NCBI RefSeq assembly: GCF_988242995.1
Contig: NZ_OZ547043.1
Strand: one strand, 5' to 3'
DNA length: 64,000 bases
In this document: positions 55,809-64,000 of the stretch, piece after piece
Layout of the letters: every line of letters begins with the position of its first letter
Position numbering within the stretch: position 1 is the stretch's first letter
Translations under genes and position numbers: made by a program
The notes under the pieces: model-generated
The model's input: the letters and a program-made list of their open reading frames with translations, nothing else
What the model was told of the DNA's origin: nothing
The model's database searches: none

Positions 55809-57878
55809 TTACTGTAACAGCGAAATATCCGCAACGCGCAGGAACAGTTCGCGCAGTTTCTCCAGCATGGTCAAACGGTTGATACGCAATTCTTTGTCAT
55901 CAACCATGACCATCACTTTATCGAAGAAGGCATCAACCGGTTCACGCAGCTCAGCCAGTTCGACCAGCGCATCCTGGTAACGACCTTCAGCAAAGTACGG
56001 CTCCAGTTTATCGCGCAGCACAACCACCTGCATCGCCAGTTTAATTTCTTCCGGCTCTTTCAGAGTAGAAGCATTCACGCGATCGCTCAGCACTTCGTCA
56101 GACTTCGCCAGAATGTTAGATACACGTTTGTTCGCCGCCGCCAGTGCAGCAGCTGCATCCAGGGTACGGAAGTGCGATACCGCCTTCATACGGGCATCGA
56201 AATCTGCCGGACGAGTCGGACGACGCGCCAGTACCGCCTGGATGGTATCAACGGTATAACCTTCGTCCTGATACCAGGCGCGGAAGCGACCGAGCATAAA
56301 GTCGATAACATCATCAACCACGTTGGCATTAGTCAGCTTATCGCCATACAGACGCACTGCTTCTTCGGTCAGCGTTTGCAGATCAAGGTTGAGGTTCTTC
56401 TCAACGATAATGCGCAGCACACCAAGTGCGGCACGACGCAGCGCAAACGGGTCTTTATCGCCTTTCGGATGCTGACCGATACCGAAGATACCTGCCAGGG
56501 TGTCCATCTTGTCAGCAATCGCCAGCGCACAAGCCACTGGGTTAGACGGCAGGTCATCACCGGCAAAACGCGGCTGATACTGCTCGTTCAGCGCCACTGC
56601 CACATCTTCCGCTTCGCCATCGTGACGCGCGTAGTGCATCCCCATAACGCCCTGGGTGTCGGTGAACTCGAAGACCATGTTGGTCATCAGGTCGCACTTG
56701 GACAGCAGGCCCGCACGGGTTGCGTGGTTAACGTCAGCGCCAATCTGTTCAGCAATCCAGCCAGCCAGCGCCTGGATGCGGTCAGTTTTGTCGCGCAGTG
56801 TACCCAGCTGTTGCTGAAACAACACGGTTTGCAGGCGCGGCAGGTTATCTTCCAGACGTTTTTTACGGTCAGTGTTGAAGAAGAACTCGGCATCCGCCAA
56901 ACGTGGACGAACGACTTTCTCGTTACCAGAGATAATTTGCTGCGGATCTTTCGATTCGATGTTGGCAACGAAGATAAAGTTCGGCAGCAGTTTGCCGTCG
57001 TTCGCGTACACCGGGAAGTACTTCTGGTCACCTTTCATGGTGTAAACCAGCGCTTCAGACGGCACAGCGAGGAATTTCTCTTCAAATTTCGCGGTCAGCA
57101 CAACCGGCCACTCCACCAGCGAAGCCACTTCTTCCAACAGGCTTTCGCTTAAGTCAGCGTTACCGCCAATCTTACGCGCCGCTTCTTCGGCATCGGCTTT
57201 AATCTTCGCCTTACGTTCTTCGTAATCGGCGATGACTTTCCCGCGCTCACGCAGAATTTCCGGATACTGATCGGCATTGTCGATAGTGAATTCCGGCTCG
57301 CCCATAAAGCGGTGGCCGCGAATCACGCGATCGGACTGAATGCCCAGAATGGTAGCCGGAATAACTTTGTCGCCCAGCAGCAGGGTCACGGTGTGCACCG
57401 GACGCACGAAGTGCACGTCGCTTGCACCCCAACGCATCAGTTTCGGGATCGGCAGTTTCGCCAGCGAAGTCGCAACCATATTCGGCAACAGTGCTTCAGT
57501 GCTTTCGCCCTTCACGTGGGCGCGATACAGCAGCCATTCACCTTTATCGGTAGTCAGACGCTCAGCCTGGTCTACGGTAATACCGCAACCACGCGCCCAG
57601 CCTTCTGCCGCTTTGCTCGGTTTGCCTTCAGCGTCGAACGCCTGAGCAATCGCCGGGCCGCGTTTTTCGATTTCACGATCCGGTTGCGCTTCCGCCAGGT
57701 TAGCTACTTTCAGCGCCAGACGACGCGGAGCAGCAAACCATTGAACGGTGCCGTGTGCGAGACCAGCGTTATCCAGCTCCGCAGTAAAATTCGCAGCAAA
57801 GGACTCAGCCAGGCTGCGCAGTGCTTTTGGTGGCAGCTCTTCAGTGCCAATTTCCACCAGGAAAGTTTTCTCAGACAT
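55809..57878 (-). CDS. glyS: Glycine--tRNA ligase beta subunit, 689 aa
   Basis: Track [43 protein letters not shown]...; expected length. Confidence 0.97.
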
Positions 57879-57887
57879 AGCCGCCTC

Positions 57888-58799
57888 TTACTTATCTTTG
57901 TTGCACATCGGGAAGCCGAGGGCTTCACGGGAAGCGTAGTATGCTTCAGCCACTGCTTTGGTCAGGGTGCGAATGCGCAGAATGTAGCGCTGACGCTCGG
58001 TGACGGAGATGGCTTTACGCGCATCCAGCAGGTTGAAGCTGTGGGCGGCTTTTAGAATACGCTCGTAGGCTGGCAGCGGCAGTGGATTTTCCAGCGCCAG
58101 CAGCTGCTGCGCTTCTTTCTCGTACTGCTCAAAGCAGGTGAACAGGAAGTCCACATCCGCGTATTCGAAGTTGTAAGTGGACTGCTCCACTTCGTTCTGA
58201 TGGAACACGTCGCCGTAGGTGGTTTTACCCAGCGGGCCGTCGCTCCAGACCAGGTCGTAAACGCTGTCTACGCCCTGAATGTACATTGCCAGACGTTCCA
58301 GACCGTAGGTGATCTCGCCGGTAACCGGTTTACACTCCAGACCACCAACCTGCTGGAAGTAAGTGAACTGCGTCACTTCCATGCCGTTCAGCCACACTTC
58401 CCAGCCCAGCCCCCAGGCACCCAGCGTCGGGTTTTCCCAGTTATCTTCCACGAAACGGATGTCGTGGATGGTCGGGTCCATGCCCAGCTCTTTCAGAGAA
58501 CCAAGGTACAGCTCCTGAATATTGTCCGGCGATGGCTTAATGACCACCTGGAACTGATAGTAGTGCTGTAAACGGTTGGGGTTTTCGCCGTAGCGACCAT
58601 CGGTCGGGCGACGAGAAGGCTGAACATAAGCAGCCGCCATCGGTTCTGGCCCCAGCGCGCGCAGACAGGTCATTGGGTGAGAGGTTCCCGCGCCGACTTC
58701 CATGTCCAATGGTTGAACAATGGTGCAGCCCTGGCGAGCCCAGTAATCCTGTAAGGTCAGGATCAAGCCCTGGAAGGTCCTGGTATCAAACTTTTGCAT
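57888..58799 (-). CDS. glyQ: Glycine--tRNA ligase alpha subunit, 303 aa
   Basis: Track [45 protein letters not shown]... Confidence 0.97.
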
Positions 58800-58893
58800 A
58801 TTATTTCGTGCTGGATACGTGTGGATTTAAAGGAAGGGATCAGTATACCCGCTGGATGGAAGATATACAGTACGAAACGGGAAAAAGCAGGGC

Positions 58894-59202
58894 TTAACGC
58901 ATGGAAAGATGCAAAAAATGGCCATCTGCGTCAAAAGAACAGACAAACTGCTCTTTACGGAAGGTATAACCGCGCATTTCGTAGCTCCCCTGGAACTGTT
59001 CAAATGCGGTGACGTCGATTTTTTGCGCACCTGTATTATAGCGTTTTGCCGCCTGATCTTTGCATAGCCCTTCCATATTCAACGAACGCAGAGGATCAAC
59101 CTTTACCCGTTGTGCTTTCTGCACGGGTGGCGGTGTAGAACAACCCACTAGCGCCATAAGCACCATAAGCGCCATTGCCGGAAAGAAAGAGTTCATCATC
59201 AT
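58894..59202 (-). CDS. ysaB: Small lipoprotein YsaB, 102 aa
   Basis: Track ORF MMMNSFFPAMALMVLMALVGCSTPPPVQKAQRVKVDPL... (lipobox LVGC). Confidence 0.8.
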   Translation of the reverse strand: MMMNSFFPAMALMVLMALVGCSTPPPVQKAQRVKVDPLRSLNMEGLCKDQAAKRYNTGAQKIDVTAFEQFQGSYEMRGYTFRKEQFVCSFDADGHFLHLSMR

Positions 59203-59376
59203 TAAATTACCGTCTGGTTTGCAGGTGAGTCTTATTATTTATATCGGTATAGTGGCTGATATCTTACGAATTTCCTTAAGCCTCTATAAGCTGTAGTGAT
59301 AAAACTCAGATTATTCCAGTGCGCCAACCGAATGATTTATCGGTCAGACTTTTTTTAACCAGATACAGAGACACAG

Positions 59377-60372
59377 ATGCAGCCCAAAATTTACTGGATT
59401 GATAACCTGCGAGGGATAGCGTGTTTAATGGTGGTGATGATTCACACCACTACCTGGTATGTGACCAATGCTCATAGTGTTAGCCCCGTCACATGGGATA
59501 TCGCCAATGTTCTGAATTCTGCCTCTCGTGTCAGCGTGCCGCTATTTTTCATGATTTCCGGCTATCTCTTTTTTGGCGAACGCAGCGCCCAGCCGCGCCA
59601 TTTCTTGCGTATCGGCTTATGTCTGCTTTTTTATAGCGCAATCGCACTGCTCTACATTGCGCTGTTTACCTCCATCAATATGGAGTTAGCGCTGAAAAAC
59701 CTGCTGCAAAAGCCAGTGTTTTACCACTTGTGGTTTTTCTTCGCGATTGCGGTGATTTATCTGGTTTCACCGCTGATTCAGGTGAAGAACGTCGGCGGAA
59801 AAATGTTGCTGGTGCTAATGGTGGTGATTGGCATTATCGCTAACCCAAACACAGTGCCGCAGAAAATTGACGGTTTTGAATGGCTGCCAATTAACTTATA
59901 TATCAATGGCGATACTTTTTACTACATCCTGTATGGCATGTTGGGCCGCGCTATAGGGATGATGGACACACAGCATAAAGCACTGTCGTGGGTGTGCGCC
60001 GCACTGTTTGCGACGGGGGTTTATATTATCTCTCGCGGGACATTATATGAATTGCAGTGGCGCGGAAATTTTGCCGATACCTGGTATCTTTACTGTGGGC
60101 CGATGGTTTTTATCTGCGCAATCACGCTATTGACTCTGGTTAAAAACACGCTGGATACGCGTACCGTTCGCGGACTTGGCTTAATCTCCCGCCATTCGTT
60201 GGGTATATACGGATTCCACGCCTTGATTATCCATGCACTGCGCACCCGGGGGATTGAGCTTAAAAACTGGCCAATACTCGATATTATTTGGATCTTTTGC
60301 GCGACGTTGGCAGCGAGTTTGTTACTTTCTATGCTGGTACAACGAATCGACAGAAACAGACTAGTGAGTTAA
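59377..60372 (+). CDS. wecH: Membrane O-acetyltransferase for enterobacterial common antigen, 331 aa
   Basis: Track [38 protein letters not shown]...; acyltransferase-3 family. Confidence 0.92.
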
Positions 60373-60380
60373 ATAAATAT

Positions 60381-60405
60381 CCTCCGGCATAGCCGGAGGT
60401 TTTTC
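60381..60405 (+). terminator. wecH intrinsic terminator
   Basis: cctccggcatagccggagg followed by ttttt. Confidence 0.7.
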
Positions 60406-61110
60406 AAATGCGCCTATAAGGCTCTCTTACCAGCCGCGCCCTAACAGGCGCACACGATCTGACATTTGCATCCAACTTCGTTACTTACGGCCCGTAAACG
60501 GGCTGCCCGGATAGGGAATCGATAACTGCTCTCCCATTTTATCCTCTTCAAGCTGGTGCTTTATGTAATCCTGTATCTTCGCCGTGTTCTTACCCACTGT
60601 ATCGACGTAGTACCCTCTGCACCAGAACTCCCTGTTCCTGTATTTGAATTTCAAATCACCAAACTGCTCGTAAAGCATCAGACTGCTTTTCCCTTTCAGA
60701 TATCCCATAAAGCCGGATACGCTCATTTTGGGCGGGATCTCCACAAGCATATGGATATAATCTGCACAGCATTCAGCTTCCAGAATCCGTACGCTTTTCC
60801 ACTCACACAGCTTTCTCAAAATACTGCCTATTGCTCTACGCTTCTCTCTGTAGAACACCTGTCTTCGGTATTTTGGCGCAAAAACTATGTGATATTTACA
60901 GTTCCATCGGGTGTGCGCTAAGCTCTTTTCGTTCCCCATTGGGACCCCCTTTTGATTTCTTGTTTGACACTTGCAGTTGCCAGACCGCAAAGTGTTTTAA
61001 CAAATCAAAAGGGGTTTTAATAACTGGCTCAAAGCTGAAAGCTTTCCGGAACCCCCAGCCTAGCTGGGGGTTTTCTGTGCACAATAAAGGCCCGGTCACA
61101 TTGGACTGAC
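60405..61110 (-). mobile_element. IS200-like insertion sequence (IS200/IS605 family); boundaries approximate within about 30 bp
   Basis: Single Y1 (HuH) transposase gene with about 75 bp after the stop and about 170 bp before the start. The upstream end carries the characteristic perfect hairpin acccccagcctagctgggggtt. Total about 0.7 kb, as expected for IS200; no terminal inverted repeats, consistent with the family. Confidence 0.8.
60481..60939 (-). CDS. tnpA: IS200-family transposase TnpA (Y1 HuH transposase), 152 aa
   Basis: Track ORF 60481..60990; conserved start MGNEKSLAHTRWNCKYHIVFAPKYRRQVFY; HuH motif (HMLVEI) and catalytic Tyr region (RGYYVDTVG) present. Confidence 0.92.
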   Translation of the reverse strand: MGNEKSLAHTRWNCKYHIVFAPKYRRQVFYREKRRAIGSILRKLCEWKSVRILEAECCADYIHMLVEIPPKMSVSGFMGYLKGKSSLMLYEQFGDLKFKYRNREFWCRGYYVDTVGKNTAKIQDYIKHQLEEDKMGEQLSIPYPGSPFTGRK

Positions 61111-61118
61111 CGGGCTTA
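61087..61118 (-). terminator. Probable yiaA terminator hairpin
   Basis: Stem cccggtca / tgaccggg followed on the minus strand by ctttattgt, just 3' of the yiaA stop. It could instead be part of the IS200 end. Confidence 0.45.
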
Positions 61119-61124
61119 TGTGAA

Positions 61125-61562
61125 TTATTCGCTGTATTCTTCCTGGGTAACCTGTGTTTCTTTTAGTGGGTTTATTCCGGCATCACGAATATTCTTCTGC
61201 ACCGCTACTGCACCAAACAAGCTTAAGAAGAAAGCTAGTCCATAAAAACCTTTCTCGCTGAGTAATAATGTCGCATTCCACAGACCTACCATCAGTAATG
61301 CAACAGAGATAATAAAGACAGTCAGGCAGGTCATATAATAAATGGAAGTGGTCGGTATGCCTTCATACTTGTCCCGAACGGTCTTTTGATAAGACGCAGC
61401 AGAAAACAGTCCTAATACCAGTACGGCAAAATAATATCCTTTTTCATTTAACTGCATCTCTGCATTCCATAGCCCTAACAGATAGGTAACGATACCACCA
61501 ACGAGAGCTATCCATGACACAATACTGAATGCCGGAGAATAGGTTGATATTTTGTTGTCCAT
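61125..61562 (-). CDS. yiaA: Inner-membrane protein YiaA, ~145 aa
   Basis: Track ORF 61125..61565 [33 protein letters not shown]...; second Met taken as start; paralogue of the adjacent yiaB. Confidence 0.88.
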
Positions 61563-61607
61563 CACAGTATTCCTTTCATTCCTGAATGTGTAAGAGCTTT
61601 ATGTTGC

Positions 61608-61949
61608 TCATGCCGGGCGAAACAAACGCATTTGACCAAACAAGCAGACAAAAAAGGCGATAGGGTAGATCACCATTTCATAAGCATTGATAGGTGCGTT
61701 TAAAACACCTATAAACAAGAGACCGATAGTGATTAACGCAACTAACTGGCAGATGTGGGTAAAAAAATCATCCAGTTGCCCGAGTTTTTCTGCGCGAAGA
61801 TATGCATAGTTGCCAAAAGTTGCCGTCATTAACACGCCAAGAAAATAGCCTTTTCCACTTAACAATGGGCATGAGATCCATAGCCCAAGCAGATAAACCA
61901 GCGCCCCGGCAACAAATAATATTTTTGCCACAGTCTTTGAGGTTTTCAT
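61608..61949 (-). CDS. yiaB: Inner-membrane protein YiaB, 113 aa
   Basis: Track ORF 61608..61991; start taken at MKTSKTVAKILFVAGALVYLLGLW (ATG at 61947-61949); shares the YLLGLW and ...LFG motifs with YiaA. Confidence 0.85.
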   Translation of the reverse strand: MKTSKTVAKILFVAGALVYLLGLWISCPLLSGKGYFLGVLMTATFGNYAYLRAEKLGQLDDFFTHICQLVALITIGLLFIGVLNAPINAYEMVIYPIAFFVCLFGQMRLFRPA

Positions 61950-62116
61950 AACGATCTCCATATCTACCAGCGATACATTACGAGTAACCAACGAAAGACA
62001 AAACTGAAAAATGCCATTAACAAATGATTTCAGAATAAATTCATACTAAATATTAATTAATTACTGATATATATAGATGTAAATTATCCCCCACCCGGTC
62101 AGGCAGGGGATAACGT

Positions 62117-63571
62117 TTACGCCATTAATGGCAGAAGTTGCTGATAGAGGCGACGGAACGTTTCACGTCGTGGCTGATAAGCGGCATAACGCTGCGCATC
62201 TGGTAGATGCGACTGTTCTAACGGCAGTTGCGGCAACAACTCAATGAGCGATTTCTCTGGATTCGCCGCAATCTGCGCCAGCCTTGCTGCGCCCAGTGCT
62301 GGCCCCACATCCCCCCCCGTACGGTAATCGAGCCGCTGACCGCTGATATCCGCCAGCATCTGACGCCAGTACTCACTACGCGCCCCGCCACCAATCAACG
62401 TAACACTTTGCGGTTTAATGCCGCAGGCATGCACGACATCCATGCCATCTGCCAGCGCATAACCCACGCCTTCCAGCACTGCTCGCGCCAGTTCATTGGG
62501 GCCATGTTGATGAGTCAAACCAAAGAAAACCCCCTTCGCCTGGGGATTATTGTGTGGTGTACGCTCGCCGGAAAGATAAGGCAGAAACCAAACTGGCTCG
62601 GCACTTTCATCAGCCTGTTGAGCAGCCGCGATTAAAGCTGGGACATTGTTCAGGCCCGTTAATTTCGCAGCCCAATCCAGACACGACGCTGCACTCAGCA
62701 TTACAGACATTAAATGCCAACGCTGCGGTAGCGCATGGCAAAAGCTGTGTACGGCGCTTTCTGGCTTGCTTAAGAACCCTTCGCTGACAGCAAAATAGAC
62801 CCCCGACGTCCCCAGCGATAACATTGCCTGATTAGCATCAACCATTCCTACACCAACCGCACCAGCTGCATTATCACCACCGCCTGCGACAACTGGCACC
62901 GCCGCCATACCCCACGCTTTCGCAACTTCAGGTAGCAAAGCACCAGTAATTTCGCTGCCTTCGTATAATGCGGGCATCTGGTCACGAGATAAGTGGCAAG
63001 CCTGCAGCATGACGTCACTCCAGTCACGCTTTGCGACATCCAGCCACATGGTGCCAGCTGCGTCAGACATATCGCTGGCAAACTCCCCCGTCATACGCAG
63101 ACGCAAGTAATCTTTCGGTAACAATACTTTGTCGATTTGACGGAATATCTCCGGCTCATGCCGCTGAACCCATAGCAATTTAGGCGCAGTAAATCCGGGC
63201 ATCATCAGGTTACCGGTAATCACCCGCGATTGCGGAACTCGCGCTTCCAGCAAAGCGCACTCTTGCGCACAGCGCCCGTCGTTCCACAAAATGGCAGGGC
63301 GTAATAACCGTTGCTGGGCATCCAGTAAGGTTGCACCGTGCATCTGGCCGGCAATACCCAATGCTTTAACGTCCTGCAGAGAATGCTGATCGCCCAGGGC
63401 TTTCATTGCGCGATCAGTTGCCTGCCACCACTGTTCCGGGTCTTGTTCCGACCAGAGTGGATGCGGGCGCGAAACGGTCAGCTTTTCCGTTTGCGAAGCA
63501 ACCACCTCGCCCTGCTCGTTGAGCAAAATAACTTTTACGCCCGAGGTGCCAAGATCTATCCCGATATACAT
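62117..63571 (-). CDS. xylB: Xylulokinase, 484 aa
   Basis: Track ORF MYIGIDLGTSGVKVILLNEQGEVVASQTEKLTVSRPHPLWSEQDP...; FGGY carbohydrate kinase. Confidence 0.96.
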   Translation of the reverse strand: MYIGIDLGTSGVKVILLNEQGEVVASQTEKLTVSRPHPLWSEQDPEQWWQATDRAMKALGDQHSLQDVKALGIAGQMHGATLLDAQQRLLRPAILWNDGRCAQECALLEARVPQSRVITGNLMMPGFTAPKLLWVQRHEPEIFRQIDKVLLPKDYLRLRMTGEFASDMSDAAGTMWLDVAKRDWSDVMLQACHLSRDQMPALYEGSEITGALLPEVAKAWGMAAVPVVAGGGDNAAGAVGVGMVDANQAMLSLGTSGVYFAVSEGFLSKPESAVHSFCHALPQRWHLMSVMLSAASCLDWAAKLTGLNNVPALIAAAQQADESAEPVWFLPYLSGERTPHNNPQAKGVFFGLTHQHGPNELARAVLEGVGYALADGMDVVHACGIKPQSVTLIGGGARSEYWRQMLADISGQRLDYRTGGDVGPALGAARLAQIAANPEKSLIELLPQLPLEQSHLPDAQRYAAYQPRRETFRRLYQQLLPLMA

Positions 63572-63642
63572 ATCGATCGTTCCTTAAAAAAATGCCCGGT
63601 ATCGCTACCGATAACCGGGCCAACGGACTGCACAGTTAGCCT

Positions 63643-64000
63643 TTATTTGTCGAACAGATAATGGTTTACCAGATTTTCCAGTTGCTCCTGGCGACCACTC
63701 TGATGCACCGGAGACAAATTGTGTTCCTGAGCATATTTGGCTAAATCTGCCAGTGACATTTGGCCTTTCAGGATTTGCTGGCCTAATTCGCTATTCCAGC
63801 CGGAATAACGCTGCGCGATGCGTTTATCCAGCTCGCCATCTTCAATCATGCGTGCTGCAATTTTCAGCGCCAACGCCATCGTATCCATCGCGCCGATATG
63901 ACCGTAAAACAGATCATATTTATCAGTACTTTGACGACGTACTTTGGCATCGAAGTTCAGACCGCCGGTGGTGAAACCGCCTGCTTTGAGAATTTCATAC
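63643..64000 (-). CDS. xylA: Xylose isomerase (C-terminal ~119 codons; 5' end beyond the window)
   Basis: Track fragment 63643..63888 ends ...[14 protein letters not shown], the XylA C-terminus; the frame stays open to the window edge and sits upstream of xylB as in xylAB. Confidence 0.88.

Follow-up and report, generated by a model that had tools for sequence, protein, structure and literature searches.

The ysaB gene of the window, the 64,000-nt stretch of DNA analysed here, is a common natural allele that is already known, deposited and annotated. It carries three units of a 9-nt in-frame repeat, against two in the ancestral form, and it very probably represents a derived expansion, neutral or near-neutral in effect, within a signal peptide that is predicted to be cleaved.

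Identity of the ysaB gene

The ysaB coding sequence occupies 58894..59202 on the minus strand and comprises 102 codons and a TAA stop. This assignment draws on the open reading frame listing, on Pfam PF13983 and on 100% identity to the annotated ysaB WP_000980158.1 of strain 7/2. The translation starts MMMNSFFPAMALMVLMALVGCSTPPP and is 102 aa long, exactly as the preliminary description had quoted it. Against Pfam PF13983 (YsaB-like lipoprotein), the window protein scores 144.9 bits (E = 9.2e-43, cut-off 27), with residues 28-102 aligned to profile positions 1-75 of 75. The gene is flanked by wecH (59377..60372, plus strand) on one side and by glyQ (57888..58799) and glyS (55809..57878), both on the minus strand, on the other. 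This wecH-ysaB-glyQS order is the order of K-12, and ysaB is in the position orthologous to that in MG1655 and a further five annotated genomes. In the protein alignment, the triple-Met start of YsaB is kept as far as Citrobacter, which backs the annotated start codon.

YsaB is a small predicted lipoprotein without known function. A PDB sequence search (E <= 1) with YsaB returned no match. An NCBIfam scan of the window and K-12 proteins matched zero families; the alleles are therefore not separated by NCBIfam, and the PGAP name for YsaB must rest on something else. The E. coli papers examined name ysaB in passing and say nothing on the long allele. The gene is included in a cloned ysaB-glyQ-glyS fragment (PMC3668246) and forms the boundary of a 97-bp region that holds the glyQS promoter (PMC10123097). 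A LolCDE inhibitor induced ysaB ~11-fold (PMC5105897), and YsaB was among the predicted lipoproteins simulated on membranes (PMC7139219); the protein is listed there as a predicted or uncharacterised lipoprotein and nothing further (PMC5105897; PMC7139219).

Length difference from K-12 and structure of the repeat

In MG1655, ysaB (b4553, YP_588469.1) has 300 nt and encodes 99 aa, so the K-12 length given in the preliminary description was correct. The annotation of this entry, 'putative lipoprotein YsaB', likewise treats the lipoprotein status as putative. The pairwise alignment proposed earlier as a check, with a 102-aa K-12 protein as the refuting outcome, was run with BLASTP and gives 94/102 identities with one 3-residue gap, which lies in the signal peptide: MALMVLMALVGC in the window is aligned to MALMVL---VGC (ungapped MALMVLVGC) in K-12. 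This gap is the sole length difference between the two proteins. Shared by both are the MMMN start, the lipobox LVGC, a Ser at +2 and a predicted mature length of 82 residues. The window differs in having a third 9-nt unit and Cys21 instead of Cys18; the signal peptides are further distinguished by an S5A substitution, and the mature parts by four amino acid substitutions, T23I, P25S, G45A and A59E (window to K-12).

The extra residues belong to an array of three 9-nt units, ATGGCGCTT / ATGGTGCTT / ATGGCGCTA, at 59149..59175 on the minus strand. The codon-by-codon listing of the coding strand reads ATG GCG CTT | ATG GTG CTT | ATG GCG CTA at codons 10-18, encoding MAL-MVL-MAL, and TRF reports a period of 9 with 2.9 copies and 88% matches at 59150-59175. 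The K-12 array has two units, ATGGCGCTT / ATGGTGCTA (ATG GCG CTT | ATG GTG CTA). In the DNA alignment, MAFFT places the 9 nt missing in K-12, GCTTATGGC, at 59153..59161 (minus strand), and BLASTP places the gap at codons 16-18. Inside a repeat such placement is arbitrary, and the extra residues are accordingly L-M-A or M-A-L; the lipobox LVGC downstream is unchanged. For this region, a small in-frame duplication had been proposed, located within the hydrophobic core and before the lipobox. The in-frame 9-nt unit and the intact lipobox bear this out, but the duplication is imperfect.

Only 2 to 4 imperfect units make up the array across its known forms. At a phase-variable or contingency locus, repeat number switches the reading frame or a promoter, and the ysaB array does not behave in this way. 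It is not an on/off phase-variation switch, because the 9-nt unit keeps every variant (300, 309 and 318 nt) in frame.

Frequency of the long allele

Among the 5,426 complete E. coli genomes sampled, 5,425 gave a match to the whole ysaB gene, in 548 cases at >=99% identity. Long and short forms were typed with an 80-nt query spanning the repeat junction: matches at >=95% identity were counted as long, and those at 80-90% as short. By this measure, the long form is present in 834 of the 5,425 complete genomes (15%), as a span of 80 nt. The short form was found in 4,589 complete genomes at 80-90% identity, with a 71-nt span, corresponding to a 9-nt gap, in every match sampled. No genome fell into the 90-95% identity class for the junction query. 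Carriers of the short form include the K-12 derivatives DH5alpha, RP437 and HB101, and also O157:H7 and the ST131 strain EC958.

The entry WP_000980158.1 ('YsaB family lipoprotein') is 100% identical to the window ysaB over 309 nt, and its strains, for example E. coli 7/2, SW4848 and AST215, share the window allele with no difference. The suggestion that the indel might be strain-specific thus does not hold: the allele is widespread and stands in RefSeq. A sequencing or assembly artefact as the source of the extra 9 nt is ruled out, with a probability that is practically nil, because hundreds of independently finished genomes contain the identical sequence.

Signal peptide and predicted processing

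The predicted type II (lipoprotein) signal peptide, as read from the sequence, spans codons 1-20 (MMMNSFFPAMALMVLMALVG; 59143..59202, minus strand); that of K-12 has 17 codons. It leads into the lipobox L-V-G-C at codons 18-21 (59140..59151, minus strand). By comparison with the K-12 protein, the predicted mature lipoprotein of 82 codons extends from Cys21 to Arg102 (58897..59142, minus strand), and all length forms have a predicted mature part of 82 aa. The uncharged stretch that precedes the Cys grows from 13 residues in K-12 to 16 in the window, with nearly equal mean hydropathy (2.11 versus 2.22).

The lipoprotein rules of PROSITE PS51257 comprise: a lipobox core pattern; a Cys within positions 15-35; and a Lys or Arg within the first seven residues. 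The core pattern, {DERK}(6)-[LIVMFWSTAG](2)-[LIVMFYSTAGCQ]-[AGS]-C, written as a regular expression, matches the window YsaB, and the Cys lies within the permitted range at position 21 in the window and 18 in K-12. Neither Lys nor Arg occurs among the first seven residues of the window protein, MMMNSFF, nor among those of K-12 and E. whittamii YsaB; such a residue is present in E. albertii (K4), Citrobacter (K4) and E. fergusonii (R4). In the YsaB of E. coli (codon 4, AAC, at 59191-59193) and of E. whittamii, residue 4 is Asn, which leaves an n-region without positive charge. Like typical Gram-negative lipoprotein signal peptides, that of the window YsaB has a lipobox of the form [LVI][ASTVI][GAS]C after its hydrophobic core, but its n-region is without Lys or Arg.

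Lipoproteins mature at the lipobox Cys, which Lgt modifies with diacylglyceryl, LspA exposes by cleavage and Lnt N-acylates. Here, the predicted lipid-attachment residue is Cys21, followed by Ser at +2. Signal peptidase II would be expected to cut the precursor before Cys21 and so to discard the three extra residues together with the signal peptide. An Asp at +2 keeps a lipoprotein in the inner membrane; the Ser found at this position would be expected to direct sorting to the outer membrane. The signal peptide of the major lipoprotein, Lpp, has 20 residues, and a length of 20 is well inside the normal range. As signal peptidase II is expected to remove the segment that holds the indel, the mature 82-residue protein should be unaffected by this length change. 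For the same reason, its position within a predicted cleaved signal peptide, the earlier suggestion that the indel is harmless is plausible.

The short form as ancestor

Outgroup ysaB genes were retrieved from one-genome-per-species representatives with a degenerate DNA pattern derived from the conserved YEMRGYTFRKE. A Cys18 collinear with the short form was found in E. albertii, in E. whittamii, in four Citrobacter and in the divergent E. coli SCPM-O-B-8794. CE10, of a divergent E. coli lineage, also has Cys18, together with a segment of two-unit length, and the E. fergusonii protein P0010, obtained by cluster look-up, has Cys18 as well. Judged by this outgroup Cys at position 18, the short form is the ancestor, from which the long form was derived by expansion. 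Codon 13 is Ile (ATT) in E. albertii and E. whittamii and ATG in K-12-type alleles. It is plausible that the change from ATT to ATG turned ATGGCGCTT ATGGTGCTA into an imperfect direct repeat, and thereby into a substrate for slippage.

The opposite polarity would make the 102-aa form the E. coli ancestor and derive the K-12-type 99-aa form from it by deletion. In its favour, removal of GCTTATGGC from the window yields the exact K-12 signal-peptide sequence in one step, and a GCT microhomology is present at the deletion junction. Against it stand the outgroups, since every one checked, including CE10 and SCPM-O-B-8794, has Cys18; moreover, the short form makes up 85% of E. coli genomes. On the outgroup evidence a long ancestor is rejected as most improbable.

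Origin and spread of the long allele

With the short form taken as the starting point, the composition of the third unit bears on the route to the long one. A perfect 9-nt duplication of the K-12 array would yield MAL-MVL-MVL, with GTG in the third unit, but the window has GCG at this position. The perfect-duplication intermediate, with GTG in its third unit, had no exact match among the 5,426 complete genomes. Taken together, the GCG and the missing intermediate indicate that the path from short to long needs two events; the path from long to short, giving K-12, needs one exact 9-nt deletion.

The expansion most likely had a single origin on a K-12-like signal-peptide sequence, ATGGCGCTT ATGGTGCTA, and would have involved: either slippage during replication or an unequal exchange between the two similar units; one T-to-C change in the third unit, for which conversion between units may be the alternative; and subsequent movement of the long array onto different ysaB backgrounds via recombination. 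All sampled long alleles have an identical repeat region. Around this region, S5/A5 and G45-A59/A45-E59 occur in all four possible combinations, represented by WP_000980158 (the window allele), WP_000980157, WP_000980105 and WP_000980106. One repeat region on four combinations suggests that the long array arose once and was then redistributed by recombination. As read from these alleles, the four combinations are the four-gamete signature of intragenic recombination, and mosaic blocks in the ysaB DNA alignment match this pattern.

The array would still be mildly unstable, giving rise to 2-, 3- and 4-unit forms. A 105-aa allele, P0004 (loci L020-L022), has four units, MAL-MAL-MVL-MAL, one of which is an exact additional ATGGCGCTT; downstream of the array it differs from the window at 0/255 positions. 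At least 19 contigs of draft assemblies and read sets carry it. In the 5,426 complete genomes this 4-unit allele is absent, the best full-length matches being 3-unit alleles at 89.9%. A second variant, the 99-aa allele P0020 (L023-L025), has two units in the order MVL-MAL, the reverse of the K-12 order MAL-MVL, and occurs in 2 complete genomes. Both are the same gene as in the window, with the same family of 9-nt units, and P0004 equals the window allele outside the array. Natural isolates thus carry signal peptide variants of 17, 20 and 23 residues.

The MVL-MAL allele opens another route to the long form, namely a single unequal homologous recombination between two short alleles. In such a crossover, unit 2 of MAL-MVL (ATGGCGCTT ATGGTGCTA) would pair with unit 1 of MVL-MAL (ATGGTGCTT ATGGCGCTA). 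The product would be exactly ATGGCGCTT ATGGTGCTT ATGGCGCTA, reached without an extra point mutation, and the missing perfect-duplication intermediate would be accounted for. The required MVL-MAL parent exists (P0020), and the downstream sequence of L024 equals that of the long 14EC020 allele, as expected of a 3' parent. However, this putative parent is very rare in comparison with its product (it is present in 2 of 5,426 complete genomes, the long form in 834), and to arise from the ancestral short form it would require two point changes of its own. MVL-MAL may equally well be a one-step contraction of the long allele through loss of unit 1. We regard the crossover as an unlikely origin and retain it as a rival; expansion followed by secondary events is favoured. 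Under the favoured expansion, the length polymorphism itself is most likely neutral.

Divergence, neighbouring elements and dispensability

The 94-nt spacer between ysaB and glyQ shows 0/94 differences from K-12, and the essential glyQS promoter region is therefore untouched. Within 58700-59450, a promoter scan found zero sigma-70-like sites, and a terminator scan found two weak terminator-like hairpins on the plus strand that are irrelevant to ysaB.

The mature-coding part of ysaB (58894-59142) is 6.0% diverged from MG1655 (15/249 nt, 4 aa), and the flanking genes are 1.1% (glyQ, 57888-58799) and 1.4% (wecH, 59377-60372) diverged. The window haplotype, G45 with A59, is also found in CE10 and in an E. 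fergusonii YsaB; the K-12 haplotype, A45 with E59, resembles E. albertii and E. whittamii. From these alignments, the pattern resembles a long-standing polymorphism of two haplotypes, or else an imported segment, that recombination has shuffled.

An IS66-family element (tnpA/tnpB/tnpC) interrupts ysaB in the clinical isolate E. coli 22AR0118 (L019; NZ_CM132257.1, locus 1-2665), in which glyQS, directly downstream, is intact. In NZ_CM172609.1, ysaB is likewise in two pieces. The split ysaB beside an intact glyQS suggests that ysaB may be dispensable and that glyQS may be independent of read-through from it.

Between the wecH stop codon and yiaA, the window contains an IS200C-type element (60373-61089, net ~711 nt) with a tnpA ORF at 60481..60990 and an Rfam STnc490 match at 60949..61072, both on the minus strand. 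The 5' region of the element matches the Hfq-binding sRNA family STnc490 with 144.6 bits. In an Rfam scan of 57800-61300, STnc490 was found inside the IS200 copy only, and no family was found in or beside ysaB. The insertion is missing at this site in MG1655 and strain 7/2, and present in EBJ003, 98228, Nord122 and others; strain 7/2 has an identical ysaB but is without the element. For the 8 kb at window positions 56000-64000, the best match among complete RefSeq E. coli genomes is 99.2%, though ysaB alone is matched at 100%. This best match places the strain of the window, or its mosaic, outside the 5,426 complete genomes.

A 2,762-nt contig (CABTAA010000217.1, L013) from a metagenome-assembled genome that bears the label 'uncultured Collinsella sp.' also contains the 3' end of an E. 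coli-type ysaB (VTAFEQFQGSYEMRGYTFRKEQFVCSFDADGHFLHLSMR); it is probably a mis-binned Escherichia contig.

The question of adaptation

The alternative to neutrality is that the longer hydrophobic core is functionally meaningful, and was selected because it improves or re-routes the export of a precursor without charge in the n-region. E. coli YsaB has N4 and is without Lys or Arg upstream of the h-region, as compared with K4 in E. albertii and Citrobacter and R4 in E. fergusonii. A longer hydrophobic stretch can reportedly offset a missing N-terminal positive charge, a finding attributed to Hikita and Mizushima in J Biol Chem in 1992, and such an effect would fit charge compensation in YsaB. 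The long allele has also reached 15% on several backgrounds, and some isolates have gained a fourth unit. However, N4 with a short h-region is kept by 85% of E. coli and by E. whittamii, so no compensation is apparently needed. Contraction back to 99 aa occurs too; mean hydrophobicity is essentially constant (2.11 versus 2.22); and at least one isolate, with ysaB interrupted by IS66, can apparently dispense with the gene. On balance, a selected role in export is very unlikely.

The fullest version of this reading would cast the array as a length-variable tract of 2, 3 or 4 units that tunes the export or targeting of a precursor left without charge by the change from K/R4 to N, with the long allele as a selected, compensatory state. 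We consider this version highly improbable. If it were true, the repeat expansion would be a selected compensatory change and not neutral drift.

Significance

The difference in length from the K-12 protein is real and common; it has been catalogued before, and it matters very little. The indel lies in a part of the precursor that is predicted to be discarded, and it therefore needs no special annotation. A mildly useful by-product is the short imperfect in-frame repeat itself, through which signal peptides of 17, 20 and 23 residues arise in nature. These variants could serve as a natural series on h-region length in the export of a lipoprotein with an uncharged n-region.
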